Source: Ruminococcus sp.
GTDB lineage: Bacteria; Bacillota; Clostridia; Oscillospirales; Acutalibacteraceae
DNA: 64,000 nucleotides
Reading direction: 5' to 3'
NCBI GenBank assembly: GCA_017458845.1
Contig: JAFSZY010000041.1
Coordinates: 24,524 to 88,523, forward strand
Position numbers and translations under genes: made by a program. Below, piece by piece: positions 14,749-44,312 of the stretch (within the stretch, counting starts at the first letter, position 1; every line of letters starts with the position of its first letter). The notes under the pieces were generated by a model. It was not told the DNA's origin. It was given only the letters and a program-made list of their open reading frames with translations, and did not search any database.

Positions 14749-14754
14749 CAAAAG

Positions 14755-16317: not shown

Positions 16318-16338
16318 ATTCTATTTAGGATGAGTGTT

Positions 16339-23496: not shown

Positions 23497-26400
23497 TTAT
23501 TTAACTTTTACCTTAACGGTCACCGTCTTAGATTTTGCCTTATAAGCTGTGTTGCCCTTAGCGGTAACTTTGATTTTAATCTTATATGTTTTGCCTTTCT
23601 TTAGTCCTTTCTTGACTGTCAGCTTACCCGTCTTTTTATTGATACTTATTTTGGAATTGCCTGAAACCTTCTTGTAGGTAACGGTACCCTTTGCATTTTT
23701 AACCTTGAGGACTTTGGACTTTGAGAAGGTTGTTTTCTTCGCAGCCTTTGCTGTGACGGTCTTGCCCTTTACGGTAAGCGTGTTGACGCGCTTGACAACC
23801 TTAATCTTGACGGACGCGGACTTACCGTTGTTGGTCGCCGTGATTATTACGGAGCCCGCCTTCTTGCCGACAACCTTGCCTGAGGATGTAACTGTGGCAA
23901 CCTTTGTGTTGCTTGACTTGAATGTTGTGCTGCCGACGCCGTTTGTCACCGAAGCGTAAACCTTAGTGGAAGCGTTTACATAGATTGTAGACTTTGTTGC
24001 CGCTGCGGCAATAGATGTCTGGTACTGCTGCTCGGTAGCCTGTGTTTCACCGGTTGATTGGGTATCTGTTTCAGGCTCGGTAGTCTGATTATCCGTAGTT
24101 GCCTGAGTGGCTTCGGTTGCCTCTGTATTCTCACCGGATTCAGTTGCCTGAGTTGCATCCGTCGTCTGAGTAGACTCAGTTGACTCAGTTGTTTCAGTGT
24201 TTCCTGTGGTTGCTTCAGTTGCCTCAGTTGCCTCAGTTGTCTGAGTTGCCTGAGTAGCTTCGGTGGTCTCGGTTGTTTCGGTTTTCTTTGTGATTACCGT
24301 TACGGAAACCTCGCCTTTAATCTTAGTCAGGCGATAAGTGTTTGCGAGAGTCGAGCTGAGATCCTTCAGATTCTTATAGTTAGTGTCCGGTGTCGCTGTA
24401 ACGCTTTCCACCTCATAACCGTCAGCGGGAACTACGGTAAAATTGACCTGACCGTCGCCCGAGCTGTCGGGTTCGCCCGTATCGCTGTTTCTCGAAACCG
24501 CCGAAATTACGTTTGTCGCGGAAGCCACGGAATAATCCTGTGTATTATATGTGTTAATTGTCGCGTTGCCGTCTGTGATGAAGCTTACAGTGTAGCCCTC
24601 GTCGGCAGTTGTCGCGGAAGTCGCTTCTGTGCTATCAGTTGTCTGAGCGGCTTCTGTTGTGGCTTCTGTCGCGCTTGTTGTCGCTTCTTCCTCAACATAC
24701 TCTGTAACCGTAGTGAGCGCGGGTATGGTCTTGTACTCAACCCGGCTTGAATCGGAGCAAGTGTACTTGAGCAAGCCTGTGCTTGATGTTGTCGCGGCGC
24801 TCACAACAGTACCGCTGTTCCAGCTGTGGGCCCAAGGGTTGCCCTTGGAGGTTGTAACGCTTGAAGCTGTGGAATATGAGGTGTTGGATGAGGTTGTGTT
24901 AGCGTCAGAGTAGAGAATATAGTTTACGTTTCTGAGGAGCTTTTCACTGCGAACCACACTGCCGCTTTGAGTTACGTTAATAACTGTGCCGGCTGAACGG
25001 CTTGTTGTTGAAACGTAATATTTCTGAGTGCCGGTCTGGGAGCTTGGGTTCTCGTTCATCGAATTTGTTCCCGCGGCGAAAACCGTGCCGCCTGTGATTG
25101 TAATCGTGCCGTCGCAGTCAAGGGGCGAGTTGTCGCCGCCTGTGGCTTGCGAAAGGACTGTCACATCGCCGCCTGAGATTTTGAGGTCGCCGTTTGAGTC
25201 GAGACCGTCGCCTGTACAGTTCACATAAACGTTGCCGCCATAGATGTTGATTGAGTAGTCGGATGAGCCCGAGCTCTGCTGGCCGCCCTGCTGACCGGGC
25301 TGATTTCCGCCCTGACCGGGACCGCCCTGGTTTCCGCCCTGACTGCCCTGACCGGGTCTGAACTGGTCGTTGCCGCCCTGTCCAGGGTCGGTGCCGTTGG
25401 AGCTGCCGCCTGCGGCGTTGATGCCATCGTCGGAAGCGTTGACATAAAACTTACCTGAGTAAATATTGACTACGGCTCCTTCTAAGCCCTCGTAGCTTGA
25501 ATTGACTGTAATCTCGGGGTCGCGGTCATAGCCGTTCTCTGTGCCGAGTGTGAGAGTAGCGTCGGCGTGGACGCCGTCGTCGCCTGTGTAGATATCAAAC
25601 GTACCGCCTGTGATTGTAATATAGCCGTTGGAGTGAACCGCGTCGTCGGCTGTGTTGAGGCTAAAGGTACCGCCCGAAATTGTCATAGTGTTTGTGGGGT
25701 TGTTCTCGTCAGTGACATTGTTGCTCGAAACCTTCAAGCCCTTACAGCTCATTGTATCCTTGTTAAAGGTTAAACTGCCGTATCCGTTTTCTGTTTTTAC
25801 GGTATAATCACCGTTTGTAATGGTGAGGTTCTCAGCCGCGACAATACCGTCGCCCTGAGCGTTGATATTAAAAGTACCGCCGTTGATTGTAACAGTACCC
25901 GCGGAGTCTGTGTCCCCCTCGTCGGGCTGGGACTTGATTCCGTCGTTTCCGGCTGTCACGTTGAATGTGCCCGCGTTGATTACGACGCTGCCGTCAAAGG
26001 CTATGCCATTGTTGGCGGCTGTGGCGTTTATAATTCCGCCGTCAACGATTAACGAAGATGTTGTGCCGCCCTTGATTGCGTTCTTGGGTGTGCCGACAGC
26101 GTTGAGCGTGCCGTCGCCGAAAATCGTGAGCGTTGAGCCTGCCTTGACCTTAATCGCCGCTCCCTCAAAGTCCGAGTTGGTCTCGTCGAGAGTTTCGTTA
26201 TCGGTGATTGTGCTTGTGCCCTCGAGCTTTAGAAGCACCGAACTCGACTTTTTCACAACTATCGGAGCTGTGCTTGCCGAGGTTAAATCGAGGTCATCGA
26301 GTATCAGCGTAACTCCGCTGAGACTGCCCTTAACGACAATCGCGCCCTCGGAGCAGCTGCCTGTCACACGATAGGTGCCCGCCTCGTTGATTGTGAGCGT

Positions 26401-26565
26401 TGCGCCGCTTATGGTATAGCCAGAGCCCGAAACGGTCTCGGTTATACCGCTGTCCGTGAATGTAAGCGTTGCCTGCTCAGCCGAGTACGCCGATGCCGTA
26501 AAAGGTATCATCGACAAAATCATAAGAGCCGCGAGTATTACGCTCAGAAGTCTGGTAGTTTTCAT
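23497..26565 (-). CDS. Cthe_2159 (DUF4353)-family beta-helix carbohydrate-binding surface protein with T/E-rich linkers, Big_2 and Lys-rich C-terminal module
   Basis: GSCSEGAIVV, repeated GDGI/DDAVHSNG/DDGVHAD/DDGINAAGG/GDGLDSNG/NSPLDCDG Ca-binding turns, G/Q-rich insert; start ATG 26565 with GGAGG RBS. Confidence 0.88.
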   Translation of the reverse strand: MKTTRLLSVILAALMILSMIPFTASAYSAEQATLTFTDSGITETVSGSGYTISGATLTINEAGTYRVTGSCSEGAIVVKGSLSGVTLILDDLDLTSASTAPIVVKKSSSVLLKLEGTSTITDNETLDETNSDFEGAAIKVKAGSTLTIFGDGTLNAVGTPKNAIKGGTTSSLIVDGGIINATAANNGIAFDGSVVINAGTFNVTAGNDGIKSQPDEGDTDSAGTVTINGGTFNINAQGDGIVAAENLTITNGDYTVKTENGYGSLTFNKDTMSCKGLKVSSNNVTDENNPTNTMTISGGTFSLNTADDAVHSNGYITITGGTFDIYTGDDGVHADATLTLGTENGYDRDPEITVNSSYEGLEGAVVNIYSGKFYVNASDDGINAAGGSSNGTDPGQGGNDQFRPGQGSQGGNQGGPGQGGNQPGQQGGQQSSGSSDYSINIYGGNVYVNCTGDGLDSNGDLKISGGDVTVLSQATGGDNSPLDCDGTITITGGTVFAAGTNSMNENPSSQTGTQKYYVSTTSRSAGTVINVTQSGSVVRSEKLLRNVNYILYSDANTTSSNTSYSTASSVTTSKGNPWAHSWNSGTVVSAATTSSTGLLKYTCSDSSRVEYKTIPALTTVTEYVEEEATTSATEATTEAAQTTDSTEATSATTADEGYTVSFITDGNATINTYNTQDYSVASATNVISAVSRNSDTGEPDSSGDGQVNFTVVPADGYEVESVTATPDTNYKNLKDLSSTLANTYRLTKIKGEVSVTVITKKTETTETTEATQATQTTEATEATEATTGNTETTESTESTQTTDATQATESGENTEATEATQATTDNQTTEPETDTQSTGETQATEQQYQTSIAAAATKSTIYVNASTKVYASVTNGVGSTTFKSSNTKVATVTSSGKVVGKKAGSVIITATNNGKSASVKIKVVKRVNTLTVKGKTVTAKAAKKTTFSKSKVLKVKNAKGTVTYKKVSGNSKISINKKTGKLTVKKGLKKGKTYKIKIKVTAKGNTAYKAKSKTVTVKVKVK

Positions 26566-26740
26566 AGTGTTGTCCTCCAATCATTATGTTCAGGGAATTG
26601 CCTTTCCCTTAGTTTACATATTAAGCTTAAATAGTATATGTGATATGTTTTTGAACACAATCTGTTTTATTTTGAAAAGTTTTGCGAAATAATCATCTCT
26701 GTGTATAAATAATACAAAAGAAATCTTGAAGTTTTATTGC

Positions 26741-27099: not shown

Positions 27100-28374
27100 C
27101 TATGCGAACAGAGTTGCTTTTCTCCACGCGCCGTAGTATGTTTTGCCGCCTATTTTCTTATAAGCTCTGATGCGAATGTAATAATAATAACCTGAAACCG
27201 TCTTAATCTTAGCGCTACTGGCATAACTTGCCAATTTTGCGGATGAAGTATACTTTGAGGCAAAATTCTTTTTAGTGGAAACCTGTAAATTATAACCCGT
27301 ACAGTTAGCTTGCTTCTTGAACGAGATATTCAGGTATCCTTTTTTTACGGTTTTCTTAGTTATAGCAACCTGACCCGGCTTGACCAGTATGGTTACTTTC
27401 TTGGTTTTCGCCTTATACTTAGTGGTTTCCTTAGCTTTGATTGTTATTACTGCCTTACCGCAACCCTTAACAGTAACCTTGCCCGATGAAGAAACCGCAG
27501 CGACCTTCTTGTCGCTTGATTTGTATGTCATTTTGGTTTTTGCCTTAGCTCCGAGAGAGAACGGGGACGCGCCGTATTTTTTTGTAAAAGAGCTTTTACC
27601 CTTAATAGTCTGGTTACTCTGAACTGTTACGGTTACCTTAACACTGCCAATAATCGTTTCATCTCCCGTAATATTCTCATAAAGCTTAAAGTTAAGAGTT
27701 GTCTTTCCTCTTTTAACTCCCGTAAGGGTAAACACCGCGGTATCTTCTGCCCATTTTTTAAAATCAATTTTCACTAAACTGTTATTATTCCATGATACGC
27801 CAAAATACTTAGGATAGGTTCCGTCGGGATAAATCTTCAAGGTAGCAGTGTTTGTACCAGATAAATTTAATTTAAAATTCTTTTTGCTGGCAACAGTCTT
27901 AGTATTGCAAACCAAAACCCCTACTGTTGTGCTTGCAATGGTTGTTTCGTTCGGATCGTCAGAGTCGTAAATACTGAATTCAATTTCAACCGCATCAACA
28001 GCTTTGCCTGTTAAAGACAATACAGCGCTGTCACCTTCCCATCTCACAAAAGTGACATTTAGCGCGCTTTTATTGTTGTTTGACCAAGCAATAGTATAGT
28101 TATTGGGATAATAACCCCCGGGCGTAACTTTAATCTGAGCTGTTCTGGTACCGTTAAGATTCAGCACAACAATGCTCTTATCCACTGTAAGCTTGCTGTC
28201 TGCGCCGGTTGGTTCCTTCGCAATTGAGGAACTACTCTTTTTTGCAACCTCGACTTTACCGCTTTCTCCCGCCGATGAGGAAGATTTAAATGCCTCTTGC
28301 GCGGACACGCTGAAAGTTGAGAGCGTTATCAACAGCGCCAGTAAAACACTTGTAAGTATTTTTAGCTTTTTCAT
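27100..28374 (-). CDS. Secreted protein with two Ig-like repeats, Big_2 and a basic Fn3-like C-terminal domain
   Basis: Signal peptide; internal repeat (TAQIKVTPGGYYP.. / TATLKIYPDGTYP..); YKSSDKKVAAVSSSGKVTVK; YYYIRIRAYKKIGGKTYYGAW; AT-rich. Confidence 0.82.
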   Translation of the reverse strand: MKKLKILTSVLLALLITLSTFSVSAQEAFKSSSSAGESGKVEVAKKSSSSIAKEPTGADSKLTVDKSIVVLNLNGTRTAQIKVTPGGYYPNNYTIAWSNNNKSALNVTFVRWEGDSAVLSLTGKAVDAVEIEFSIYDSDDPNETTIASTTVGVLVCNTKTVASKKNFKLNLSGTNTATLKIYPDGTYPKYFGVSWNNNSLVKIDFKKWAEDTAVFTLTGVKRGKTTLNFKLYENITGDETIIGSVKVTVTVQSNQTIKGKSSFTKKYGASPFSLGAKAKTKMTYKSSDKKVAAVSSSGKVTVKGCGKAVITIKAKETTKYKAKTKKVTILVKPGQVAITKKTVKKGYLNISFKKQANCTGYNLQVSTKKNFASKYTSSAKLASYASSAKIKTVSGYYYYIRIRAYKKIGGKTYYGAWRKATLFA

Positions 28375-28427
28375 ATAATTGCCTCCTAAAATATATTTAT
28401 AAATAGTCATTCGACCGTTTATACTGC

Positions 28428-29273
28428 TTAGTATTCGATGGTAGGTTTAACGGGTTCGGGATTCTGCGACGGTGTCGCGCTTGACGAGCTGTTGCTCGGA
28501 ACGTAGTTATAGGTCGAATCGTTAACCTCAGGGGTATAATCCGCCTGTGAAGATGAAGATTGCGGCTGTGGCTTTTTGCCCTTGCTTACAACGAGAGTGA
28601 TGGTCGAATTGATTTTGACGCTTTCTCCCGCCTTGTTCTGACGTATAATCTTGTCCTTTGATACAGATGAACTGTACGCCCTCTTGACCTTATACTTAAG
28701 CTTTGCGTCAGAGAGCTTTTTCTTGGCGGCGGAAAGCGTTTGTCCCTTTACATCGGGGACTTGCACCATCCGGACTCCCTTGCTGATAACAACGGAAACC
28801 TTTTCGCCTTTTTCAGCCTTATCTCCTGCTTTTTTGTCCTGCCGGATGACGCAGCCCTTATCGACAGAATTGTTGTATTCTTCACTGCCGACAACAAGCT
28901 CCAATCCAAGATATTTCAGAGCCTCCTCGGCGTCAGCCCGGGTTTTACCAATCAAGTCGGGATACGTAATCTGCTTGCCGCTGCTCACTATCAGCGCCAT
29001 TGTTTCGGATGATGATATCTCCGAGCCCGCGTCAAAGCTCTGATCGACCACAAGTCCCGCCTCAACAGTATCGGAAAAGGTTGTCTCCACGGAATAATTT
29101 ACACCCGCGCTTTTAAGCGATTGCTCCGCTTCCTCTCTGGTCGCGCCTATGCACGAGGGAACCTTAACGGTTTTCTCTCCGCAAGACGCCATAACCCCTG
29201 TGAACAAAAGCGCCGCCATAATAAGCGGAAGTATTTTCCTGAATAATACGGGATACATGCTCTTTGTTTTCAT
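28428..29273 (-). CDS. Lipoprotein with three PASTA domains and an S/P-rich tail
   Basis: Lipobox MASC; KVPSCIGATREEA, YPDLIGKTRADA, QVPDVKGQTLSAA repeats. Confidence 0.88.
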   Translation of the reverse strand: MKTKSMYPVLFRKILPLIMAALLFTGVMASCGEKTVKVPSCIGATREEAEQSLKSAGVNYSVETTFSDTVEAGLVVDQSFDAGSEISSSETMALIVSSGKQITYPDLIGKTRADAEEALKYLGLELVVGSEEYNNSVDKGCVIRQDKKAGDKAEKGEKVSVVISKGVRMVQVPDVKGQTLSAAKKKLSDAKLKYKVKRAYSSSVSKDKIIRQNKAGESVKINSTITLVVSKGKKPQPQSSSSQADYTPEVNDSTYNYVPSNSSSSATPSQNPEPVKPTIEY

Positions 29274-29283
29274 AAACACCTCT

Positions 29284-30753
29284 TTAAAATCTTAATACAA
29301 AAGCAGAATTACCTGCCCTGATTTCATCGCCGCTTCTGAGCCGATTCCGTGAATAAATCTTCATCTCACCAATCGCGGTGTTCGAGCGTCCGCCCACGTC
29401 CTCTATATAAACTACACCTTCGCTTATAAACACGCGGGTATTTACGGACGACAGAGCCGCGTCGTCAAAGACAATGTCGCACGAACGCCTTCTTCCTATA
29501 AATAATTCATCCTTAAGGTATATGGTGTCGCCGCTGTTAAGGCAATTGCCGTTAATGACCTCAAGCTTTATTTCTATGGCGTCCCGGCTCTTTTTCGCGC
29601 CTCGTTTTCCTGTAAGCGCAAACACTGTCACCGCCGCGATTATCACAACCGCCGCGGCTGCCGCTAATATAATCCATAACGTAAAACCATTATTCCGAGC
29701 TGCGAGCTTGGTTTTATTTGACTCGCTGTTAACAGTTGAAGATGCAGGCTGAGTTGCTTTGCTTGCATGAGAAGCCGACGTTTCTGTTTTTGATTTTGTC
29801 GTTGACTTTGTTCCTGATTTTACTTTTGAGCACGCGTCAATATTGGCTATGCCTGAAACCGCAACAGCTTTATCGGCATTGTCCGCGTTGAAGGACGCGT
29901 CAAACCGCTTTGTTTCAGCGTCGATATCAATCGGGAAGCTGAGCATATATAGGTTTTGGACAAACTTCGCCAATTGCTTTCCCGCGGCGGCGCTTTCATA
30001 AACATCCGCCGCCGTAACATTGATTCCCGTACCCGATGACAGCGCTTCTATGGTAGGCTCGTGCCATGTGCCAAAGCCTACAGTATGAACCGCGACCTCG
30101 GGCGTAGCTTTGATTAGCTTCTTAACTTTTTTAGCAGAGTTTTCTATTTTTTCATATGGATTATCGTTGTTATCAAGATATGGAATACCGTCTGTAATTA
30201 CAATAAGATTAGCAAGCTCCTCGTGACCTTTGATACTATGCGAAAGATACTTTACGGCGTTTGCTACGTTGCCCGAAATATCCGTCATTTCGCGGTCATA
30301 TTTTATTTTGTTGATAGCCGACATAACCCTCGAGGGCTTTTTCAGCTTTTTCGCTATAATCTTAAGCTTGCTTCCGAAAACCGCGACAGTAACGCGCTTT
30401 GACTTGGATTTTTCCTCGTCAAGCAGAGTCTGGACGAAGGCTTTGATTCTGTCCTGATACTCCAGCATCGAGGAAGAAGCGTCAACCAGAAGCATATAGT
30501 CAATGGTCGCCGCGCTGTTGCCGGGAGTCCTGAATAACTCGTCCTTGACAACCTTTTTGCCGACAGTGACGGAAGCCTTGCCGCCAAACGACTTTTTCAC
30601 GTTTTGGGGATTGACATAAGCCGAAATAATACCATCGTGATAATACGCGGAAACTACCGAAAAGACGGAATTTTGATAAGCGGCTTGCGCGGAAACACCC
30701 GCCGAAATAACTATGGCAAATATAATGAAAAACGCCGCTATTCTTTTTGGCAT
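29284..30753 (-). CDS. Membrane protein: signal peptide, vWA domain, S/T/K linker, TM helix, cytoplasmic (degenerate) FHA domain
   Basis: MIDAS LLVDASSSM and LIVITDG; TM LWIILAAAAAVVIIAAVTVFAL; FHA IGRRRSCD..LSSVN (no His)..LRSGDEIRAG. Confidence 0.85.
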   Translation of the reverse strand: MPKRIAAFFIIFAIVISAGVSAQAAYQNSVFSVVSAYYHDGIISAYVNPQNVKKSFGGKASVTVGKKVVKDELFRTPGNSAATIDYMLLVDASSSMLEYQDRIKAFVQTLLDEEKSKSKRVTVAVFGSKLKIIAKKLKKPSRVMSAINKIKYDREMTDISGNVANAVKYLSHSIKGHEELANLIVITDGIPYLDNNDNPYEKIENSAKKVKKLIKATPEVAVHTVGFGTWHEPTIEALSSGTGINVTAADVYESAAAGKQLAKFVQNLYMLSFPIDIDAETKRFDASFNADNADKAVAVSGIANIDACSKVKSGTKSTTKSKTETSASHASKATQPASSTVNSESNKTKLAARNNGFTLWIILAAAAAVVIIAAVTVFALTGKRGAKKSRDAIEIKLEVINGNCLNSGDTIYLKDELFIGRRRSCDIVFDDAALSSVNTRVFISEGVVYIEDVGGRSNTAIGEMKIYSRNRLRSGDEIRAGNSAFVLRF

Positions 30754-30771: not shown

Positions 30772-31485
30772 TTAAACAAAAACGGTAATCAACGAGAGAT
30801 TGTCACAGTCCTCGGGCTGTCTCTCCATAACGCGCATAAGCATAAGCTCTCCCCACTGACGGGCGGAGTCTGATTTTAAAAAGTCAACAAGAATCTCTTC
30901 TTGGCGGATATATTCCCACATTCCGTCCGAGCAGAGCAAGAACCCGTCGCCGTTTTTTATCCCGCTGCTGTCCAGCGCAGGAGTATTGCGCTCGCTGCCG
31001 ATAGCGCGCAAAAGTCGTGATTGATCCTCATCGAGAGCAATTTCGTCGTAGAAAATCTCACCCGCTTTGTACTTCTTATACGCGACGGAATGATCCTCGG
31101 TTATTCTTTTTATTTCACTGTTGCCTATATAGTACAACCTTGAATCTCCGATATGAGCCCAATACGCCTTATCGCCGTTTATTATCAGCGTAATAACTGT
31201 TGTGCGCATAGCGGCGTCTGTCTCCTCCTGAAGCGCGGTTACTTCGTCCTGCGCTTTTTTGAGAGTTTCCTCCAGCCAGTCAGAGATTTCCGTGTCGGGT
31301 TTTGGAGGAAAAGCATCGCAAAGAACCTTGACAACGCGATTTGAGGCAAGCTCGCCGTGCTGATGACCTCCGAGGCCATCAGCAACTACGAACAATGCTT
31401 GGTTTTCTGATTCTTTTATCTGCGCGCAATCTTCATTGTAAGGACGTCCGCCTGTATATGAAAATACGAAGCTGTCAGATTTCAT
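30772..31485 (-). CDS. PP2C-family Ser/Thr phosphatase
   Basis: GGRPYNED, VVADGLGGH, HIGDSRLY, LLCSDGMW, DNLSLI. Confidence 0.93.
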   Translation of the reverse strand: MKSDSFVFSYTGGRPYNEDCAQIKESENQALFVVADGLGGHQHGELASNRVVKVLCDAFPPKPDTEISDWLEETLKKAQDEVTALQEETDAAMRTTVITLIINGDKAYWAHIGDSRLYYIGNSEIKRITEDHSVAYKKYKAGEIFYDEIALDEDQSRLLRAIGSERNTPALDSSGIKNGDGFLLCSDGMWEYIRQEEILVDFLKSDSARQWGELMLMRVMERQPEDCDNLSLITVFV

Positions 31486-31488: not shown

Positions 31489-32925
31489 TTACTCCACTTC
31501 AAGAACAATCATATTGGCCTGTTCACCGAGGAAGAAACGGTCGCCCGCTCTCAGCTTATGCGAAATACCGGATGTCAGCTTTGTGCCGTTTTGAAGTACT
31601 GTTCCGTATGACGAGCCTAAATCAGTTACTGTAAACTCATTTGAATTCGGGTCATATGAAACAGAACAATGTCTTCCACTTACGCCCGGTGTACCTTCTT
31701 TATAAACAATAGCACAATCCGCCTTGCTTCTACCTATAATAATCTGGTTGTTAGGCTGAAGTTTAACTCTCATACCTCTGTGCTGCATAGCCAGCGAACG
31801 AACATATCCGCTCTTGGGCTTTGGAGCGTCCTGATGAAGGGTATTGGCGGGAGCTGCCGGCTTGGACTTTTTCTTAATAACAAGAATAATAATAACAACT
31901 GCCGCAGCGATTACAACTGCCGCCGCAACGCCGATAACAATGAATACCCATATGCTGTTGGATTCAGATTTCGGAGTGGGTGTTGGTTGTGGAGAAGTAG
32001 GCTTAGGCGAGGTTTCTCCCATAAACGCTACATTGTTATTCTTCAACATATCGATTGCTTCCGAAATATTAACACAATACTTGTTTGTTTCCTCGGGTAC
32101 AAGAACGCCCTGACTATTAAACTTATATCTTTCTACTATCCGAGACGCAATACCTATAACGTTACCGTTTTCGTCCACTCCGGGACCGCCAGAATGTCCA
32201 GACTGAATATCACAGGTGGTTTCGATATGGTTTGTTCCTGAGCCGCTCTCCACAAAGAGCTTTCCGATAATTCCGTCCTTTACGCTTGCCGCGGATATAT
32301 CACTTATTTTGGTGGGCGAAACGATACTGTTTGAGCTAATACCCGGGTATCCGAGAACATACATCTTATCGCCGACCATTTCGTCCTTGGGAGTGTGAAG
32401 CGGAATGGGTTTACGCTTATTTGTGGGTTCAGCAAGCTTAAGAATCGCGACATCTTTTTTTGCGTCTGAATCTACAACATAAAGCTCCTCGTAATCGTTG
32501 CTGTCGAATATACCGTAAATCTTAGCTCTGCCTTCATAGTACGCGTTTTTATCGACATCAAAAATTGTGGTTATTTCGCCCGCGCCGCATTCTGTATACA
32601 AATCAACAACGTGCTGGCAGGTTAATAAGTACTGTGGATTGGTAGTTTCATTTTCCGCCACAAAGAAGCCCGTACCCGAGCCTGCGGTATAGAGCATATT
32701 CCCCAATTCCTTGGGATTATCTAAGATAATATCAATACGGTCTTTGATTTTTTCCTGAGGAACACAGTTATAATGCTGTGTGCCGCCGTCAACATCCTCA
32801 AATATTACATAAACCATAATAAGGCTGTCTCTAGCCTCGTTTTGTGAGCTGGCAGCCATAGCGGGAACCGCTAAGGAAGCAAGCACAAAAATTGCTACAA
32901 TAATAGAAATAATCCTTTTTGCCAT
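31489..32925 (-). CDS. Membrane protein: signal peptide, trypsin-like serine protease, P-rich linker, TM helix, cytoplasmic FHA domain
   Basis: GSGTGFFV, LTCQHVV (His), DVAILKL (Asp), GHSGGP (Ser); TM IWVFIVIGVAAAVVIAAAVVIIILVI; FHA IGRSK..VSGRHC..DLGSSYGT. Confidence 0.9.
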   Translation of the reverse strand: MAKRIISIIVAIFVLASLAVPAMAASSQNEARDSLIMVYVIFEDVDGGTQHYNCVPQEKIKDRIDIILDNPKELGNMLYTAGSGTGFFVAENETTNPQYLLTCQHVVDLYTECGAGEITTIFDVDKNAYYEGRAKIYGIFDSNDYEELYVVDSDAKKDVAILKLAEPTNKRKPIPLHTPKDEMVGDKMYVLGYPGISSNSIVSPTKISDISAASVKDGIIGKLFVESGSGTNHIETTCDIQSGHSGGPGVDENGNVIGIASRIVERYKFNSQGVLVPEETNKYCVNISEAIDMLKNNNVAFMGETSPKPTSPQPTPTPKSESNSIWVFIVIGVAAAVVIAAAVVIIILVIKKKSKPAAPANTLHQDAPKPKSGYVRSLAMQHRGMRVKLQPNNQIIIGRSKADCAIVYKEGTPGVSGRHCSVSYDPNSNEFTVTDLGSSYGTVLQNGTKLTSGISHKLRAGDRFFLGEQANMIVLEVE

Positions 32926-32940: not shown

Positions 32941-33774
32941 TCAATATTCGCACTTTACAACAAGCGCGGTGTAATTATCCTGATATCTTTTGTTTGTAAT
33001 TAAAATATTCTGTTCCAATTGCTCGCACATCTGCGCGGGAGCGGTATTATTGTTCAAACAGTCAAATATGCACTGCTCACTTAGAACTCCGCCGACTCCG
33101 TCGGAACATAGCAAGAACACATCTCCGTCCAAAACCGGAAGCGGACGTCTGGAAATGTCAAAATCCTCGAGCTCATCCATACCCAAAAACCTTGTCAGAG
33201 CGTGCTTTTCGGGGTCGCTTTCAGCGTCGGTTTTGTCAAGACTGCCCCTGCTGACAGCGTTTAGATACTCGTCGTACATAACATTGTGCTTTCGGTTAAG
33301 ATGTATAAGATGACCGTTGCGCTTCAACATAAGGTAGCTGTCACCTACCGAAGCAAAATAAAGCTTTTCCTTATAAAACAAGCAGGCGATAAGCGTGCTC
33401 CCTCCGTCTCCGCCGAGAAGCCCGTATATTCTCTCGCTTGCCGAAAAAACGCTTTGTTCAAGCTGTTCGGCTAAATCCAGCGAATAATCAAAGGCTTCAA
33501 AGTCGTTTCGCAGGCTCGCGACAGCGGTGTCGCTGGCAAGCTTGCCGCCTTTCATTCCGCCCATTCCGTCGGTTACTATAGCCAAAAGACCCTTGTTCTT
33601 GATTTTTGTGACGTCCAGAACATTGGCGAAGCCAAAGGAATCCTCCTGGTTACTGCGTTTGCCGATGCCCTGAAGATTAGCCGCTTGATAGCTCAGGCAA
33701 TCCGCCTTAAACGCCTTCACGGGTGTAACCGTCCGGGGTTCAGCCTGATGTTTTCTCCTTGAAAACAACCACAT
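32941..33774 (-). CDS. PP2C-family Ser/Thr phosphatase (second copy)
   Basis: GKRSNQEDS, IVTDGMGG, SVGDSYL, LLCSDGV, DNYTAL. Confidence 0.93.
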   Translation of the reverse strand: MWLFSRRKHQAEPRTVTPVKAFKADCLSYQAANLQGIGKRSNQEDSFGFANVLDVTKIKNKGLLAIVTDGMGGMKGGKLASDTAVASLRNDFEAFDYSLDLAEQLEQSVFSASERIYGLLGGDGGSTLIACLFYKEKLYFASVGDSYLMLKRNGHLIHLNRKHNVMYDEYLNAVSRGSLDKTDAESDPEKHALTRFLGMDELEDFDISRRPLPVLDGDVFLLCSDGVGGVLSEQCIFDCLNNNTAPAQMCEQLEQNILITNKRYQDNYTALVVKCEY

Positions 33775-33775: not shown

Positions 33776-34444
33776 TTAACTCTCAGCTATTACGCCGTCC
33801 TCCCATGTAAAGCGGCTTGAGCACAAGGGAACAAAAACAGCCTTGCTCTTACCAAGCTCAACCGTATCATACGCGTTAAGCTTGACAGGAATATATACAG
33901 GTTCTTCGTTAACATAAATGTTGTTTGTGCTGTCGGCGGGAATGAGCTGGAAGTTGTTGTGCTTCGGGTCATACGCGAGTCTGGCGTGGTTTTCCTTGGA
34001 TATAGTTTTATCCTTTTTGATGCAAACATCCATCTTCTCGCTTCTGCCGATAGTGTTAATCTTTGCCCAAAGCTTGTAATCCTTTCCTTTCTCGGGGCCG
34101 TCAATGCAAACCAGCCAGCCGACTACGGGGTCAAGATTATAGTCCTCCTTGAACACACCTACTGTTTTGTTTTCCTCATCGGAACGCTTGCGATAGCTTT
34201 CGGGAGCAACGGTTTTTTCGGGCTCATTGGAATTAACCGCGTAATTCACCGCCTCAGTATTGCCCATCGCGCCCATATAAGGCTCCTGCGGCAAACCCTG
34301 ACCCGGAATAACGGTTTTTCCGATATCACCGTCGGCACCGTTATAATTAAAATCAATAATGTTTCTTCCACCGTTGCAGTACGGACAAGTCGCGTACTGG
34401 TCGGTATCATAAACATGCCCCTTTCCACATTCTGTAATAGCCAT
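33776..34444 (-). CDS. Soluble FHA-domain protein with N-terminal Zn-ribbon and disordered linker
   Basis: CGKGH..CPYC; VVGWLVCIDGPEKGKDY; IGRSE..ISKENH..STNN; start ATG 34444 with AAGGAGG RBS. Confidence 0.9.
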   Translation of the reverse strand: MAITECGKGHVYDTDQYATCPYCNGGRNIIDFNYNGADGDIGKTVIPGQGLPQEPYMGAMGNTEAVNYAVNSNEPEKTVAPESYRKRSDEENKTVGVFKEDYNLDPVVGWLVCIDGPEKGKDYKLWAKINTIGRSEKMDVCIKKDKTISKENHARLAYDPKHNNFQLIPADSTNNIYVNEEPVYIPVKLNAYDTVELGKSKAVFVPLCSSRFTWEDGVIAES

Positions 34445-34495: not shown

Positions 34496-36373
34496 TTAAT
34501 ATGTTGTGATTACCAAAGTACTGTCAAAGCTGTTTTCGGAATAAGAACAGTCCTCGGATATCTCGATGTTTTTCAGAGAATCGCACGCTAAAAACGCGTA
34601 GTACTCTATGCTGGTTACAGTATCGGGGATGGTGACACTGGCCAGATTTTTGCTGCCGTAAAACGCCCATTTGTCGATTGCCGTCACTCCCTCGCCGATG
34701 CTTATAGATGTGATATCCGACTCATAAAACGCCTTAGTGCCGATTTCGGTAACAGTCATACCATCGATGCTTTCAGGTACGACAACATCCTTTTCTTCGC
34801 CCGTGTAGCCCGTTATTGTTATTCCGTTATTATCGTTAACAGAATAGCTGAAGCTGTTATAGCTCGTGTTTTCTCCCTCTTGATTGCCCGACACTACAAC
34901 AGCCACAGTAACACCCGCAGTCACTATAATAACAGCCGCGAGCGCTATTGCCGCAATCATCAACACCTTGGGGTTAATACGTTTTTTTGCCGTAGTGTTA
35001 GCGTCGGACTTTTGAAGCTCGTTTTTTCTTTGTTCCTTCTCGAGTTTCTTTCGTTCAGCTTCAAGCTGTTTTTTCTTTTCTTTTTCTTCCTTAGCGAGCC
35101 TTAAGCGTTCCTGCTCTTCCTTTTGTTTCTTCTCTCGCTCAATACGCTTTGCTTCCTGTTGTTTTTTCTTCTCCTGTTCTTTTCTTTCACGTTCCCTGCG
35201 TTCCTCTTCTTTGCGCTCTTGCTCTTTTCTTTCGCGTTCCTGTCTTTCATTTTCGGAGCGCTCCCGCTCGGCGCGCTCCTGCTCTAAGCGTTCTTTTTCA
35301 AGCCTTTCCTGTTCCTCTTCTTGCTGTGACTGTCTCAATTGCTCCTGCCTGTTTTGAGCCTGAACCGCAGAATTATAGTAACCGGCTCGAGGAGTATACT
35401 CGCTGATGGTCGGCATCACATTTGCCGATGTAAACGCGTTTTTAAACTCCAGCATATTTTGAAATCTGTCAGCAGGATATACGGATAACGCTTTAACCAG
35501 CGCGTCCTCGTCAGTTTTTGAAATACTGATTCCCAGATTACCGGGATAAATCAAGTCATCCTCGTCCATTCTTTCTACGGAATCAGGCGGTATCTTCCCC
35601 GTAATCGAACGGTAAAAGGTAGCCGACAGGGAATAAATATCCGTGTAGGGTCCCTGTCTGCCCCTGCGGGTATACTGCTCCTTGGGAGCGTATCCGTGCT
35701 TTAGAACCACATCGAGGCTTCGGCTTTTGTCGCCCAGGCTGTATCTTGCCGCGCCGAAATCAAGGAGCTTGATACTGCCATCCTCGGTGATATAGATATT
35801 ATCGGGACTTATATCTCTGTGTATTATTCCCTTTGAGTGGACATCCGACATAGCGTCCATTATGGGAAACAGAATATTCTTTGCCGCCGCGACGCTTATT
35901 TTGCCGCCGTTGTTCTTCAGATAGGTTTGCAGACTAATACCCTTGATGTACTCCATAACAAAATACGCGGTATTATTCTCTTCAAAATAGCTGTATACCC
36001 TGACAATGTTGGGGTTACCTATAAACTCCGCAAGCGTTTTTGCTTCGTTGAGAAAACATTCTTTTCCGTAATTAAAGCTGTCGGCTCTGTCGTCGGAATA
36101 TGTAGAAACGGTTCTCGACTCTATTCTGGTTGCCAGCGTTTCAGGGAAATACTCCTTTACAGCGCAGATCTCTTTGGTCTGATAGTTTTGGGCAACATAG
36201 GTTATTCCGAATCCGCCTTGTCCCAGCACCCGTCCTACAATGTATCTGCCCGCGAGTATAGTCCCCTTCGGCAGAGCGACGGGGTATTTACCCTTATCCT
36301 GAGACACATTATATCCGCAGCCGGGACATACGCTGCCCGAGTGCTCGTTAAAACAGTTGTAGCAAATATTCAT
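34496..36373 (-). CDS. Hanks-type Ser/Thr kinase: Zn-ribbon, kinase, E/R/K/Q-rich helix, TM, extracellular LRR_5 (BspA-type) domain
   Basis: CYNC..CPGC; LGQGGFGITY, AVKEY, HRDISPDN, DFG, YAPKEQ; TM VLMIAAIALAAVIIVTAGVTVAVVV; VVVPESIDGMTVTEIGTKAF..VTIPDTVTSIEYYAF. Confidence 0.93.
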   Translation of the reverse strand: MNICYNCFNEHSGSVCPGCGYNVSQDKGKYPVALPKGTILAGRYIVGRVLGQGGFGITYVAQNYQTKEICAVKEYFPETLATRIESRTVSTYSDDRADSFNYGKECFLNEAKTLAEFIGNPNIVRVYSYFEENNTAYFVMEYIKGISLQTYLKNNGGKISVAAAKNILFPIMDAMSDVHSKGIIHRDISPDNIYITEDGSIKLLDFGAARYSLGDKSRSLDVVLKHGYAPKEQYTRRGRQGPYTDIYSLSATFYRSITGKIPPDSVERMDEDDLIYPGNLGISISKTDEDALVKALSVYPADRFQNMLEFKNAFTSANVMPTISEYTPRAGYYNSAVQAQNRQEQLRQSQQEEEQERLEKERLEQERAERERSENERQERERKEQERKEEERRERERKEQEKKKQQEAKRIEREKKQKEEQERLRLAKEEKEKKKQLEAERKKLEKEQRKNELQKSDANTTAKKRINPKVLMIAAIALAAVIIVTAGVTVAVVVSGNQEGENTSYNSFSYSVNDNNGITITGYTGEEKDVVVPESIDGMTVTEIGTKAFYESDITSISIGEGVTAIDKWAFYGSKNLASVTIPDTVTSIEYYAFLACDSLKNIEISEDCSYSENSFDSTLVITTY

Positions 36374-36608
36374 TCCGCAATCTCCACTTCAAGATAATCC
36401 TATTATTGTCAGCTTCCGCGCCGTTATTTTTAGCACAAAAATTCATCGTTAATTACCGGGTTGTAATTAAGCATAATTTATTTATATTATAATAAATATT
36501 TCACAAGATTTCAATATGTTTTTATATTTTTTTAACATAAATAGTATTAATAAGTATTGGATAATATTGCCTCAAAGTTTTATGCTTTTATCATTAGAGG
36601 TGATATAT

Positions 36609-36938: not shown

Positions 36939-37089
36939 GAACTTAAACGGCGGTTCTAAACCAAGAGATTTTGAACCGGATTTTTGCGCAAAAAATACGG
37001 GAGGCTGTAAACCTCCCGCGGTCTGCGTATATATAACATAGAGCGGCAAATAGCAGAAAAGCTCTAAAAAAGGAGGGGTTGTCACGCGC

Positions 37090-37713
37090 TTAGCGCGACA
37101 GCTCCTCCTTTTGCTTTTTGATAACTTTCATTCTGGAGAATTCCTCTCTGTCCTTTTCGTCGAGAGCATCAGTGATGAATTTAACCGTCTCCTCAAATTT
37201 GGGTATCATAATATTTTTCAGAGCGTTGGCGCGCTTCTGAGTTTTCTTAATGGAATCAGCAAGACGATAAACACTGTTCTCAATCTCGGCGAGGTCGGCT
37301 GTGAGCACCTTAACCTCGGTGAACTTCTCGAAAGCGTTGTCCAGCGCGGTGGTGGTAGAGTTGAGTCCGAAATAGAGCCGGCTCCTGTCGGGCGCGTCCA
37401 TCTTAACAATCGGGATTTCAACGCCCATTACCGAGCGGTAATCGAGCGACAGCGACTCCTCCACGGGAATACTCTTACTGATTTCGGAGCAATAGCCGTG
37501 GATTATGTTAGCCGTCTGAAGCGCCTGATAAGCCTCGGCGTAGGTACCGTCGATTTTGCTCTGAATCGCGTTAGCTTTATCTATGAGCATCATCATCTCT
37601 CGGATGAGAATATTGCGCTTTTTGTCCATAAGCTCATATCCCATCTTTGCGAGAGCTAATGATTTTTTTGTATTCATCAAATTGCCCTTGGTGGGCACAG
37701 CCTGAACAGCCAT
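37090..37713 (-). CDS. atpD: V/A-type ATP synthase subunit D
   Basis: PTKGNLM..GYELMDKKRNIL; KTQKRANALKNIMIP. Confidence 0.95.
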   Translation of the reverse strand: MAVQAVPTKGNLMNTKKSLALAKMGYELMDKKRNILIREMMMLIDKANAIQSKIDGTYAEAYQALQTANIIHGYCSEISKSIPVEESLSLDYRSVMGVEIPIVKMDAPDRSRLYFGLNSTTTALDNAFEKFTEVKVLTADLAEIENSVYRLADSIKKTQKRANALKNIMIPKFEETVKFITDALDEKDREEFSRMKVIKKQKEELSR

Positions 37714-37750
37714 AAATACAAACCTCCAGCCTCTTTAACAGAGGTGTAAT

Positions 37751-39124
37751 TTAGCCTTTGTAGTACTTGTCGAGCAGTTCGTCGTCAACACGGTCGAGCT
37801 CTGTTCTCGGCAGGGTTGAAAGCAGCTCCCACCCCAAGTCAAGACTCTCGGTAATGTCGCGGTCCTCGTTAAAGCCCTGGTTTACAAAGCGTGTCTCAAA
37901 CAGTTTGCCGAACTGCATATATTTCTTGTCTATCGGTGAAAGCTCCTCCTCACCGATTACGGACGCGAGCGAACGCGCGTCAATAACCTTGGCGTACGAG
38001 GCGAAGAGCTGGTTAGCGAGAGCCTGGTGGTCGGCTCGTGTAAAGCCTTCGCCGATACCGTCCTTCATCAGTCGTGAAAGCGACGGAAGCACCGCAACAG
38101 GCGGATAGTAACCCTGTCCCTGCAAGGCTCGATCCAAGGTAATCTGTCCCTCGGTGATATAGCCTGTAAGGTCGGGAATCGGGTGGGTGATATCGTCGTT
38201 GGGCATTGTGAGAATCGGAATCTGAGTCACAGAGCCTTCGTGTCCCTTAATCATACCGGCTCTCTCATAGAGTGAGGCGAGGTCGGAATAAAGGTAACCG
38301 GGGTAGCCCTTACGTCCCGGGATTTCTCCCTTTGAGGACGAGAACTCACGCAGAGCCTCGGCGTATGAAGTCATATCTGTCATAATGACGAGCACGTGCA
38401 TATCGAGGTCAAACGCGAGATACTCGGCGATTGTCAGCGCGCATCTGGGAGTCAGAGTACGCTCGATAATCGGGTCGCTCGACAGGTTAAGAAGCATTAC
38501 AACGTGAGAAAGAACACCGCTCTCCTCAAAGCTCTTTCTGAAGTATTCGGCAACGTCCTTTTGGACGCCCATCGCCGCGAAAACTACACAGAAGTTGTCT
38601 TCCGTAGCGCCGCTGATTCTCGCCTGACGTACAATCTGTACGGCGAGGTCGTTGTGCTTCATACCTGAGCCCGAGAAAATCGGAAGCTTCTGTCCTCTGA
38701 TAAGAGTCATAAGGGTATCGATTGTGGAGATACCCGTGTTTATATAGTTGGTCGGGTACACGCGGGATACGGGGTTGATGGGTGTACCGTTGATGTTGCG
38801 GCGCTTTTCGGGGAAAATATCTCCGAGTCCGTCGGCGGGACGTCCCGCGCCGTCGAGCACACGTCCGACAATCTCAGGCGAGAGCGCCTGCTCCATCGGG
38901 TGTCCCGAAAGTCTTACCTTGGCGTTTACCAGGCTGATGTTTCTTGTACCCTCAAACACCTGTACGACGATTCTTTCGCCCTCAATCTGCACAACTCTGC
39001 CCTGGCGGATTGTGCCGTCCTCAAGACGGATATCAACTATTTCCTCGTTGGAAACGCCTTTGACTCCGTCTATGACTATGAGCGAGCCGTTAATTTCCTT
39101 AACGCCTACGTAATCAATTAACAC
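37751..39124 (-). CDS. atpB: V/A-type ATP synthase subunit B
   Basis: [12 protein letters not shown]; [22 protein letters not shown]; [15 protein letters not shown]. Confidence 0.97.
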
Positions 39125-39136
39125 AGCGTTCCCTCC

Positions 39137-40903
39137 TTACGTCAATGAACGTTCTAATAACGCATCAATCTTTTCGTCGATTTCCTTTTTATAGTCATCG
39201 AACATCTCGAGTTTACTGTTCGGAATATCGTACTTTATCTTTGTGAGCTTATCGAAAACTCCGAGAGCGAGCAGCTTAGAAATCGGAATTTCCTTGGCGA
39301 TAACCTCTTTAGACCTGTCATAGAGATACAGGATAACCTGCATCATTTTGAGCTGTTTCTCGAGCGGAACATAGGTATCCTCGGCATGGAAAGCGTTCTG
39401 CTGGAGGAAGCCTACTCTGATAACTTTGGCGGTTTCGATAACCAGCTTCTGGTCGTCGGGAAGCACGTCGGAGCCGATGAGCTTGACGATTTCCATAAGA
39501 GCGCTCTCCTCCTGCAAAAGAGCGGAAATTCTGTTTCTGCACTCGGTGAACTCGGGACCCAGGTGCTCGTTGAACCACGGGTCAAGGTCGTTGAAATACT
39601 CGCTGTATGAATCTATCCAGTTGATTGCGGGATAGTGTCTGGCGTAAGCCAGCGCCTTATCAAGCGCCCAGAACACGCGGGTGAAACGCTTGGTGTTCTG
39701 AGTTACGGGCTCGGAGAAGTCAGCGCCCTGAGGCGATACCGCGCCGATAATTGAAACCGAGCCGTTGTCGTGGGAAAGCGTCTGAACTCGTCCCGCTCTC
39801 TCATAGAACTCGGCGAGTCTTGACGGCAGATACGCGGGGAAGCCTTCCTCGGCGGGCATTTCCTCGAGACGTCCCGAGATTTCTCTGAGCGCCTCAGCCC
39901 AACGCGAGGTGGAATCCGCCATAATAGCTACGTCATAACCCATATCACGGTAATACTCGGCAAGAGTAATACCCGTATAAATTGAAGCCTCTCTGGCCGC
40001 AACGGGCATATTTGAGGTGTTAGCGATAAGTACCGTACGGTCGGTCATAGGTCTGCCCGACTTAGGGTCAACCAGTCCCGAGAATTCCTCAAGAACCTGA
40101 GACATCTCGTTGCCGCGCTCTCCGCAGCCTACATACACGATGATATCCGCGTCGCTCCACTTGGCGAGCTGGTGCTGGTTCATAGTTTTACCTGTACCGA
40201 AGCCGCCCGGGATAGCCGCAGTACCGCCCTTAGCAAGCGGGAACATTGTGTCCATAATACGCTGACCAGTAATGAGCGGAACGGTTGTTGGCAATCGCTT
40301 TTCAATAGGACGCGAGAAACGGATAGGCCACTTCTGGCATAGTGTCAGGTCGTGGATTTTGCCGTACTCGTCCTTAAGCTTTGCGACAGCATCAAAAAGC
40401 TTGTACTGTCCGTCGGGCATAACCTCGGTGATTTCGCCCGAAAGCTTGGGCGGTATCATAAGCCTGTGCTCGATAATATCGGTCTCGGGAATAGTGGCGT
40501 ATATTTCGCCGCTGTTCAGCTTGTCGCCAACCTTAATCTTCATCGTAACGTCCCAGAGCTTATCGGGGTCGAGCGACTCAACCTTGGAACCTCGGCTGAT
40601 GAACGCGCCCGCCTCTTTCTCGATAGCCTTAAGAGGACGTTCGATTCCGTCAAACATATTGTCAAGTATGCCCGGTCCGAGAAGAACATTCATCGGGCTG
40701 CCTGTGCCCGTAATAGGGTCGCCCGGGCGCAGTCCGGTTGTCTCCTCGTAAACCTGAACCGTTGTAAAATCGTCGGTAATGCCGATGATTTCACCTACAA
40801 GGTTCTCCTCACCGACATGTACCATTTCCATCATTTTAAATTCGGTGGGACCTTTTACCGTAATTACAGGTCCGTTAATACCGAAAATCACATTTTTATT
40901 CAT
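39137..40903 (-). CDS. atpA: V/A-type ATP synthase subunit A
   Basis: PGGFGTGKT; GCGERGNEM; [20 protein letters not shown]. Confidence 0.97.
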
Positions 40904-40921
40904 AGTGTGTCATCTCACTTA

Positions 40922-41515: not shown

Positions 41516-41526
41516 ACTTACATCTC

Positions 41527-41835: not shown

Positions 41836-41837
41836 AA

Positions 41838-42260: not shown

Positions 42261-42317
42261 TTTGAATTACCTCCAATTATTTATCAATACCCCTTTAAGG
42301 GTGCATATGGATTTTGA

Positions 42318-44261: not shown

Positions 44262-44312
44262 TTCAAATCACCTCCTTATTAATTCCAAACTAAAACTTAA
44301 TATATTATTAAA

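Follow-up and report, generated by a model that had tools for sequence, protein, structure and literature searches.

In this study, we analyzed a 64,000-nucleotide stretch of DNA from Ruminococcus sp. (contig JAFSZY010000041.1 of GenBank assembly GCA_017458845.1; the whole stretch is called the window here, and positions are counted from its first letter), with a focus on a minus-strand gene at 31489..32925 whose predicted product joins a serine protease, a transmembrane (TM) helix and an FHA domain. To judge from sequence, this protein is no one-off fusion but belongs to a large, constrained family, encoded in an operon together with Hanks-type Ser/Thr kinases, PP2C phosphatases and further FHA proteins. 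The protease-TM-FHA cassette is well defined and widespread, its parts are individually familiar, and as a whole it is apparently unstudied. On balance, we lean towards a scheme in which phosphothreonine (pThr) made by the kinase would dock the protease FHA domain, thereby clustering the protease at a complex of the kinase and a VWA protein, with the PP2Cs resetting the system.

Architecture of the protease-TM-FHA protein

The gene product is well supported as a bitopic protein, with a stalked protease predicted outside the cell, one membrane-spanning helix and the FHA domain in the cytoplasm. Its open reading frame (ORF) starts with ATG, with an AAGGAG Shine-Dalgarno sequence 8 nt 5' of the start, and has the following features (aa, amino acid residues):

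31489..32925, minus strand: protease-TM-FHA gene, 478 aa plus stop, gene 4 of the operon (ORF list, Pfam, full-length homologs at 100% coverage)
32854..32925, minus strand: signal peptide, aa 1-24, with an MAKR n-region, a hydrophobic core and a final AMA followed by AS (Kyte-Doolittle up to 2.7)
32026..32847, minus strand: PDZ-less serine protease domain of the HtrA/DegS-like type, predicted to be extracytoplasmic, aa 27-300 (Pfam, triad, Foldseek, PDB sequence matches)
32611-32613, 32452-32454 and 32191-32193, minus strand: codons of the catalytic triad His105, Asp158 and Ser245, respectively
31954..32019, minus strand: Pro/Ser/Thr-rich flexible stalk, aa 303-324 (sequence; predicted local distance difference test score, pLDDT, <50 for aa 306-324)
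31876..31953, minus strand: TM helix, aa 325-350, 26 aa (Kyte-Doolittle up to 3.3; AlphaFold2, AF2, helix 325-350)
31801..31875, minus strand: basic stop-transfer sequence KKKSK, aa 351-355, followed by a disordered linker in the cytosol, aa 356-375 (sequence; low pLDDT at 352-366)
31492..31800, minus strand: predicted cytoplasmic FHA domain, aa 376-478, with G398 R399, S416, H419 C420 and D435..S438 S439 Y440 G441 T442 (Pfam; pLDDT 96-98; PDB matches)

The initial annotation of this ORF had listed a signal peptide, an intact triad, a Pro-rich stalk, a 26-aa TM helix, KKKSK, and an FHA domain with GR and SGRH, and we located every one of them: the protease motifs are TCQH at aa 102-105 (His105), DVAIL at 158-162 (Asp158) and GHSGGP at 243-248 (Ser245), the Pro-rich part of the stalk is TSPKPTSPQPTPTPK at 305-319, and GR and SGRH lie at 398-399 and 416-419. 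Pfam assigned Trypsin_2 to aa 84-259 (7.4e-23) and FHA to aa 395-467 (9.3e-14). No PDZ domain was matched in the protein by Pfam at E<=0.01, and the stalk and TM helix come directly after the protease domain. In the AF2 monomer model, based on 80 homologs, the mean pLDDT was 89.3, both globular domains exceeded 95, helices covered residues 2-23 and 325-350, and disorder was limited to residues 306-324 (stalk) and 352-366 (cytosolic linker).

Size and conservation of the family

The initial annotation had proposed a search for the combination of Trypsin_2, TM helix and FHA as a check; our database search for homologs recovered 113 clusters instead of a single fusion. This number is to be read as at least 113; Pfam matches to both Trypsin_2 and FHA were present in 112 clusters, and cluster P0111 had the FHA match only and was devoid of the catalytic His and Ser. 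The best database homolog (55% identity) came from a Ruminococcus sp. metagenome-assembled genome (MAG), and the only name carried by the homolog clusters was 'trypsin-like peptidase domain-containing protein'. A profile search of 1.84 billion representatives gave 2,717 clusters at 50% identity with E<=1e-30, the top 150 of which were all full-length. Scanning one genome per GTDB species, we found 316 positive genomes (best match 42% identity), from which 80 loci were kept. Nearly all of these had Clostridia titles (Ruminococcus, Oscillospiraceae, Lachnospiraceae, Acutalibacteraceae, Gemmiger, Oscillibacter and Flavonifractor); two kept contigs had been labelled as bins from outside the Clostridia (one as a Muribaculum sp. 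MAG, the other as a Bacilli MAG), and a few further titles were uninformative. Culturable carriers include, for example, Oscillibacter valericigenes, Pseudoflavonifractor capillosus, Ruminococcus sp. zg-924 and Lachnospiraceae bacterium YSB2008. The window DNA itself was present in gut metagenomes, goat gut included.

Residue positions, TM helices and charges were counted on a family alignment of 114 sequences including the query. In addition, 85 related loci (82 non-redundant) were fetched and scanned with hidden Markov models (HMMs) built from the window proteins. The catalytic triad was present in 113 of the 114 family members, as was the central TM helix, and a hydrophobic N-terminus was found in 111. 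In 110 members, more Lys/Arg residues followed the TM helix than preceded it (median 4 vs 0). The tethers had median lengths of 66 aa from the catalytic Ser to the TM helix and 55 aa from there to the FHA domain. The orientation put forward in the initial annotation, with the protease out and the FHA domain in, is thus supported, because the hydrophobic segments and the positive-inside charge bias are conserved and because FHA function relies on ATP-dependent phosphorylation.

A conserved kinase-phosphatase-FHA cassette

In the window, the protease gene (gene 4) is one of eight same-strand genes spaced 1-18 bp apart, or 51 bp before the adaptor if this starts at ATG 34444. The other members and the best promoter match are:

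36486..36514, minus strand: closest match to a sigma-70-like promoter (11/12), some 110 bp upstream of where the kinase gene starts (consensus scan only)
34496..36373, minus strand: gene 1, receptor Hanks Ser/Thr kinase, with N-terminal Zn-ribbon, kinase domain, ~120-aa E/R/K-rich segment, TM helix and extracellular BspA-type LRR_5 domain (Pfam; GxGxxG, AVK, HRD and DFG present)
33776..34444, minus strand: gene 2, small adaptor with Zn-ribbon and FHA domain (Pfam FHA 1.4e-10); probable start ATG 34444 (MAITECG), ORF-list start GTG 34477
32941..33774, minus strand: gene 3, N-terminally extended PP2C phosphatase (Pfam; catalytic motifs conserved)
30772..31485, minus strand: gene 5, second PP2C, Stp1/IreP-like but below the curated cut-off (Pfam; NCBIfam 162 bits vs cut-off 230)
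29284..30753, minus strand: gene 6, signal peptide, VWA domain (metal ion-dependent adhesion site, MIDAS, DASSS), S/T/K-rich stalk, TM helix and cytoplasmic FHA-like domain (Pfam VWA_2, FHA)
28428..29279, minus strand: gene 7, lineage-specific, lipoprotein that has three PASTA domains but no kinase domain (Pfam PASTA 1.2e-43; lipobox-like MASC), beginning 4 bp after the VWA gene
27100..28410, minus strand: gene 8, lineage-specific, repeat protein of 436 aa, secreted (weak Big_2 match), with a 17-bp gap to the PASTA gene

The genes between 29284 and 36373 have the make-up of a Hanks-kinase/PP2C/FHA module, with the HRD/DFG and PP2C metal motifs present. The order of kinase(s), Zn-ribbon-FHA adaptor, PP2C, protease-TM-FHA, PP2C and VWA-TM-FHA was retained in about 90% of the 82 non-redundant loci. 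A PP2C gene stood immediately upstream of the protease gene in 74 of 76 loci and immediately downstream in 73 of 79, whereas the small Zn-ribbon-FHA gene was found two genes upstream in 66 of 69. Two genes downstream, VWA-TM-FHA was encoded in 50 of 70 loci and any membrane FHA protein in 57 of 70; a kinase lay upstream in 41 of 48. Since the kinases vary in number (1-5) and in ectodomain (LRR, PASTA or none recognised) while the five-gene core is constant, the arrangement suggests many inputs feeding one output module. Across loci both PP2Cs kept their catalytic motifs and the kinases kept HRD/DFG, and the VWA MIDAS DxSxS was present in 54 of 56 cases. The VWA-linked FHA domain (aa 395-489 in the window protein, and its relatives) was degenerate, with Arg in 21, Ser in 25 and His in 22 of 58. 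That the protease is tied to Thr phosphorylation, as had been deduced from the FHA domain, is strongly supported by its surroundings, since one conserved operon brings it together with the two flanking PP2Cs, a Hanks kinase of the receptor type and a further pair of FHA proteins.

Some members of the operon had features of their own. In the kinase, the stretch of ~120 residues (aa ~338-455) that links the kinase domain to the TM helix is nearly all E/R/K/Q (ERLEKERLEQERAERERSENERQERERKEQ...); this segment looks like a single-alpha-helix spacer, with weak matches to TolA and RNase E low-complexity regions. The PASTA lipoprotein (28428-29279) matches just the extracellular half of PknB/Stk1-type kinases, and related Ruminococcus loci have a full PASTA kinase upstream of the cassette instead of this lipoprotein. 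A divergent cassette, adjoining a phage-type integrase, was observed on two Hadza gut contigs (L004 and L005, positions 10001-19775); it has the order protease-TM-FHA, PrsW-protease-FHA, 2-TM-FHA, large PP2C, STK-FHA (Ser/Thr kinase-FHA), PP2C and VWA-TM-FHA, and its protease FHA domain has Asn, not Tyr, at the position discussed below. An anti-phage defence system was also considered, but PADLOC matched no system and gave only generic domain matches (RT-Protease_XI and LmuA protease parts; PD-T4-6 kinase).

The FHA domain of the protease

FHA domains are pThr-specific. G398, R399, S416 and H419 were kept in the protease-linked FHA domain of all 85 loci; Gly-Arg and Ser-x-x-His are thus in place in a beta-rich model with pLDDT 96-98, and the Asn of the Asn-Gly motif is substituted by Tyr440. 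The domain has a signature of its own (D-L-G-S-[ST]-Y-G-T), with Cys420 after the His in 85/85 loci and Tyr440 for the canonical Asn in 83/85; Tyr440 was also present in 104 of the 114 members of the family alignment. HMMER aligned Tyr440 to the Asn of the solved FHA domains 1uht and 4jon. Among the PDB matches (CHFR, Rv0020c, ArnA and OdhI/GarA), the best was CHFR, whose FHA domain is likewise without Asn at this site. For this reason Tyr440 does not disqualify the predicted pThr binding, although recognition of the peptide may be tuned by it. In related loci, this 'HC...SSYGT' subtype was also part of fusions with 2-TM proteins, a PrsW-like 4-TM protease and a kinase (STK-FHA). FHA-only homolog searches for other fused ectodomains gave just short fragments or stand-alone FHA proteins.

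The protease domain and its active site

Foldseek placed DegS, HtrA1, DegP, Deg1/2/5 and MucD at the top of the matches to the protease domain (E ~3e-12, probability 1.0). By sequence, the closest PDB relatives were chloroplast Deg1/5/8, M. tuberculosis MarP (Rv3671c; 3k6y, 3k6z) and DegS/HtrA, and the S1C ectodomain of RsgI9 (7sjy) was a marginal match (E 0.0099). The His-Asp-Ser order, the Trypsin_2 match (7.4e-23) and the Foldseek probability of 1.0 all place the domain in the S1 chymotrypsin fold (Trypsin_2/clan PA). It lacks the C-terminal PDZ domain of HtrA/S1C proteases, and the NCBIfam DegP/DegS/HtrA models gave it only 20-38 bits against cut-offs >400 (250-470 with MarP).

The family consensus carries the HtrA hallmarks TNxHV and IQxDxxIxxGNSGGP(L). 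At these sites the window protein reads TCQHV and IETTCDIQSGHSGGP, which corresponds to N103C, Q235E, D237T and N244H, changes common to its nearest relatives; in the alignment with Deg1, E235, T237 and H244 stand in place of the Q, D and N of 'IQTDAAINPGNSGG'. The initial annotation had suggested that His before the catalytic Ser could alter specificity, but as a family feature this did not hold: residue 244 was Asn in 107 of 114 members, giving GNSGGP as in HtrA, and His in only four (the query with its two nearest relatives, plus one more member). In the clade of the query, N244H is accompanied by D212A/T/S, Q235E and D237T, all of them within the protease domain and at sites at least 85% conserved in the family; position 103 is changed (N103C/A) in the query and P0001, and P0002 retains Asn103. 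The residue before the catalytic Ser flanks the oxyanion hole, and DegS Gln191, the equivalent of position 235, is a residue that we take to be part of the allosteric activation cluster, which is a lead and not a test. On these two grounds, the His244 set looks like a clade-specific remodelling of the activation/oxyanion region, not a change of the S1 pocket.

Candidate phosphothreonine sites

The activation segment of the cassette kinases is near-identical in the window kinase (aa 205-232) and in the kinases of the related loci (L001-L085), with the sequence DFGAARYSLGDKSRSLDVVLKHG[YF]APKEQY. It contains Ser, was free of Thr in 69 of 70 kinases, and has APK/APx for APE; these kinases look like a distinct Hanks-kinase subfamily. 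Because the segment has no Thr and FHA domains are pThr-specific, the activation loop is unlikely to be the docking site.

The adaptor consists of a conserved Zn ribbon (ECGxGHLYDxxxYxxCPYCNG), a variable linker and the FHA domain. In the alignment of the linker, T78, P81 and T94 were invariant and T44 was conserved in at least 90%. These residues belong to the motifs GKT[VA]xP, [KA]TVAPxxY and GKTVG[VIL], whose copies in the window are GKTVIPG, EKTVAPESY and NKTVGVF. The number of Thr-motif repeats per adaptor ranged from 0 to 8, and T[VAM]xP was found in 62 of 75 adaptors, compared with 16.8 expected from shuffling. The adaptor FHA domain is canonical (G133, R134, S149, H153 and N174) and shows a resemblance, below the cut-off, to OdhI/GarA and FhaB; a GarA/OdhI-like self-binding switch in the adaptor is therefore possible.

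A similar T-V-x-P sequence, RTVTP, was observed in the N-terminal tail (aa 1-25) of the upstream PP2C (32941-33774). Related tails (VTVLP, KTVSP and VTVSP) were confined to a few Ruminococcus-like loci, and the motif was weakly enriched (6/59 vs 1.4 in shuffles); we do not rely on it as a docking site.

Proposed mechanism and alternative explanations

In the scheme that we lean towards, the receptor kinase(s) would phosphorylate conserved Thr motifs. Because the kinase activation loops have no Thr, the likeliest targets would be the three [K/A]-T-[V/A]-x-P / GKTVG sites of the adaptor linker. The protease FHA domain, as well as the same-subtype FHA domains of accessory membrane proteins, would then dock on the adaptor pThr sites, and docking would recruit or cluster the short-stalked protease with the VWA protein at the kinase complex. 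HtrA proteases need oligomerisation (as a trimer or a higher assembly), and a three-site adaptor scaffold could favour trimerisation or oligomerisation of the HtrA-like protease. Once clustered, the protease would cleave extracellular substrates close to the membrane, since the stalk is short (~20 residues); the S/T/K-rich VWA stalk or the kinase ectodomain might be such substrates, although this is speculation. Finally, the two PP2Cs would erase the pThr marks and the complex would disassemble. What we infer here comprises the phosphorylation targets, the FHA docking, its effect on the activity or location of the protease, and the substrates. A bolder version, which we hold only tentatively, is inside-out remodelling of the cell surface: interchangeable kinases would mark the adaptor, the marks would seed a complex spanning the membrane, and FHA-driven clustering within it would switch on the protease, which would act with or on the MIDAS-containing vWA ectodomain.

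Several observations weigh against the docking and clustering scheme. With Tyr440 in place of the canonical Asn, peptide recognition by the protease FHA domain may be atypical, and the clade substitutions near the active site could mean that the window protease has an altered or reduced activity. The T[VAM]xP motif was not enriched in the juxtamembrane linkers of the kinases (5/94 vs 11.7 in shuffles) or in the protease linker (2/82 vs 3 in shuffles); because neither linker has a conserved Thr motif, we only infer the docking partner of the protease FHA domain. Not every FHA module of the cassette need depend on phosphorylation, the VWA FHA domain being degenerate in most species. The single TM helix offers no obvious allosteric route, and a search for RNA-seq runs carrying the operon found none.

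In a strict reading of the initial annotation, pThr binding to the FHA domain would act through the single helix and change the extracellular protease in its conformation or activity; such allosteric control across the membrane is in our opinion unlikely. It would agree with the conservation of both domains, with a short tether of conserved length and with the kinase and PP2Cs in the operon. However, disorder is predicted for both the stalk (306-324) and the linker (352-366), which hence would be poor conduits for coupling; moreover, single-pass helices usually signal by oligomerisation, not by piston/allostery. Recruitment or clustering appears more plausible for such a helix, even though the sequence data do not separate the two. 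We give still less credence to outside-in sensing, where the protease ectodomain would serve as a sensor or site-1 protease like DegS or RsgI9 and the FHA domain would report inward to the kinase module, either because it binds or shields pThr sites or because it recruits the kinase or a PP2C. That the closest folds are the stress sensor DegS and its relatives would fit this view, as would the weak sequence match to RsgI9 (7sjy) and the fact that FHA adaptors commonly modulate kinases or phosphatases (D. radiodurans DRA0333, preprint; ArnA/ArnB). On the other hand, the kinases bear variable sensor ectodomains of their own (LRR, PASTA) and differ in number, whereas the protease/VWA core is constant, and the protease has no PDZ or other peptide-sensing domain.

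It is also conceivable, but improbable, that the FHA domain is a phosphorylation-independent scaffold with a merely structural role, like the FHA-like domains of YscD in the type III and EssC in the type VII secretion systems, with the kinase and PP2Cs acting elsewhere. Many family members indeed had Yop-YscD_cpl-type Pfam similarity, the VWA FHA domain is without Arg, Ser and His in most species, and the protease FHA domain has lost the Asn to Tyr; nevertheless, Gly-Arg, Ser and His, which form the signature of a pThr binder, were kept by the latter in 85/85 loci, and two PP2C genes bracket the protease gene in ~95% of loci. That the protein is an ordinary HtrA protease of envelope quality control, with an incidental FHA tail and incidental neighbours, is hardly credible: the protease domain is HtrA-like, but it has no PDZ, its NCBIfam DegP/DegS/HtrA scores are far under the cut-offs, and hundreds of species have kept both the fusion and the order of the genes.

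Comparison with known systems

Among proteases, E. coli DegS is the best structural match. It shares with the family an active-site region of the IQTD..I..GNSGG type (family consensus) and tethering at the outer face of the cytoplasmic membrane, and a signalling role rather than bulk degradation may likewise be supposed for the window protein. However, DegS has an N-terminal anchor and a PDZ domain on the protease side, whereas the window protein has a C-terminal anchor, no PDZ and a cytoplasmic FHA domain, and its NCBIfam DegS score was 27 vs a cut-off of 423. M. tuberculosis MarP (Rv3671c) is similarly a PDZ-less, Trypsin_2-type protease held in the membrane and facing outward, but it has N-terminal TM helices and no FHA or phospho-signalling partner, while the anchor of the window protein is C-terminal to the protease; the MarP model (NF033740) gave 33.7 bits vs a cut-off of 250. 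RsgI9, an anti-sigma-I factor of C. thermocellum, is another Clostridia single-pass protein with an S1C-type ectodomain and a cytoplasmic signalling domain. The latter is an anti-sigma domain rather than an FHA domain, the orientation is reversed (N-in) and the similarity is marginal.

On the FHA side, FhaB/FipA (Rv0019c) has a comparable module of TM helix and FHA domain, and query aa 326-452 align to the FhaB model (NF049868), though at 31.3 bits vs a cut-off of 125; FhaB is without an ectodomain, in contrast with the 300-aa ectodomain of the query. The fhaA-fhaB-pstP-rodA-pbpA-pknA-pknB cluster of actinobacteria also combines FHA proteins, a PP2C and receptor Hanks kinases (PASTA kinases occur in some related loci), but RodA/PBP genes are absent from the Clostridia cassette, which has a second PP2C in addition to a protease and a VWA ectodomain. 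In Sulfolobus, ArnA (Zn-finger-FHA) and ArnB (vWA) form one phospho-dependent module with the ArnC/D kinases and a phosphatase (PMC6509490), and D. radiodurans has a vWA-STK-FHA-PP2C operon, DRA0331-0334 (bioRxiv 10.64898/2026.01.23.701218). Both systems resemble the cassette in combining a Zn-ribbon/finger-FHA protein, vWA, a Hanks kinase and a phosphatase, and the ArnA FHA domain was among our PDB matches; however, their vWA and FHA proteins are cytoplasmic and they have no protease, whereas the Clostridia vWA and protease are predicted to be extracellular and membrane-tethered. In type VI secretion (the T6SS), the kinase PpkA (with a periplasmic vWA), the PP2C PppA and Fha1/TagH act together, docking to pThr-TssL driving assembly of the envelope complex (PMC3953482). 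The combination of receptor kinase, PP2C and FHA is common to both, and there was a weak similarity to the TagH FHA domain, but the apparently Gram-positive host studied here has no T6SS genes in this region, and its FHA domains are fused directly to outward-facing effectors.

By predicted domain content, the cassette is of the Hanks kinase, PP2C and FHA (plus vWA) kind, from whose known examples it differs in the FHA readers on extracellular effectors, the two PP2Cs and the specificity for gut Clostridia. Literature searches, whose coverage was incomplete, turned up only the related themes of ArnA/B, T6SS phosphorylation and DRA0331-0334, and nothing that describes a protease-TM-FHA protein or the Clostridia cassette.

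Other features of the window

Directly upstream of the cassette lies an operon that encodes a V/A-type ATPase and looks complete (subunits I, C/AC39, E, A, B, D; 37090-45332, minus strand); it is closed by a terminator-like hairpin:

36997-37019: terminator-like hairpin closing the preceding V-ATPase operon

Five secreted proteins of the window have in common a Lys-rich C-terminal beta module of ~110-200 aa (35-58% identity; ...GKITVKKGLKKGKTYKIKVKVTAKGNTAYK..KTVTVKIKVK). Their genes, all on the minus strand, are at 10145-13516, 23497-26580, 5861-7051, 57794-59791 and 56658-57713, and the carriers comprise one protein each of the CBM26 (starch-binding), Cthe_2159 and LRR_5 types and two of the Big_2 type. 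Pfam gave only weak Cadherin/Big_2 matches to the module, which is possibly a cell-surface anchor. An AcrB/RND-family transporter of 1,309 aa is encoded at 50605-54534 on the plus strand (ACR_tran 1.7e-185) in this apparently Gram-positive Clostridia genome; ~450 residues lie N-terminal to its best-matching stretch.

Implications

To our knowledge, the outputs of bacterial Hanks-kinase/PP2C/FHA pathways are almost exclusively cytoplasmic, examples being proteins of cell division, regulators of metabolism and the assembly of the T6SS. In the present cassette, FHA readers share one polypeptide with effectors that face outward, namely an intact protease and, in a nearby gene, a vWA domain. Hundreds of abundant gut Clostridia (Ruminococcus, Oscillospiraceae and Lachnospiraceae) carry this operon. 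The system has defined parts, namely the three conserved adaptor Thr sites, the FHA subtype HC...S-[ST]-Y-G-T and the kinase subfamily with a Thr-free activation loop. If the docking and clustering model is true, it would provide a concrete route from cytoplasmic Thr phosphorylation to proteolysis at the cell surface, and would annotate ~2,700 sequence clusters that are now merely named 'trypsin-like peptidase domain-containing protein'. If the more tentative inside-out version is also true, such a device would be a bacterial signalling output not described so far, in which extracellular proteolysis or adhesion would be controlled by phosphorylation, analogous to integrin inside-out signalling and regulated shedding in animals.

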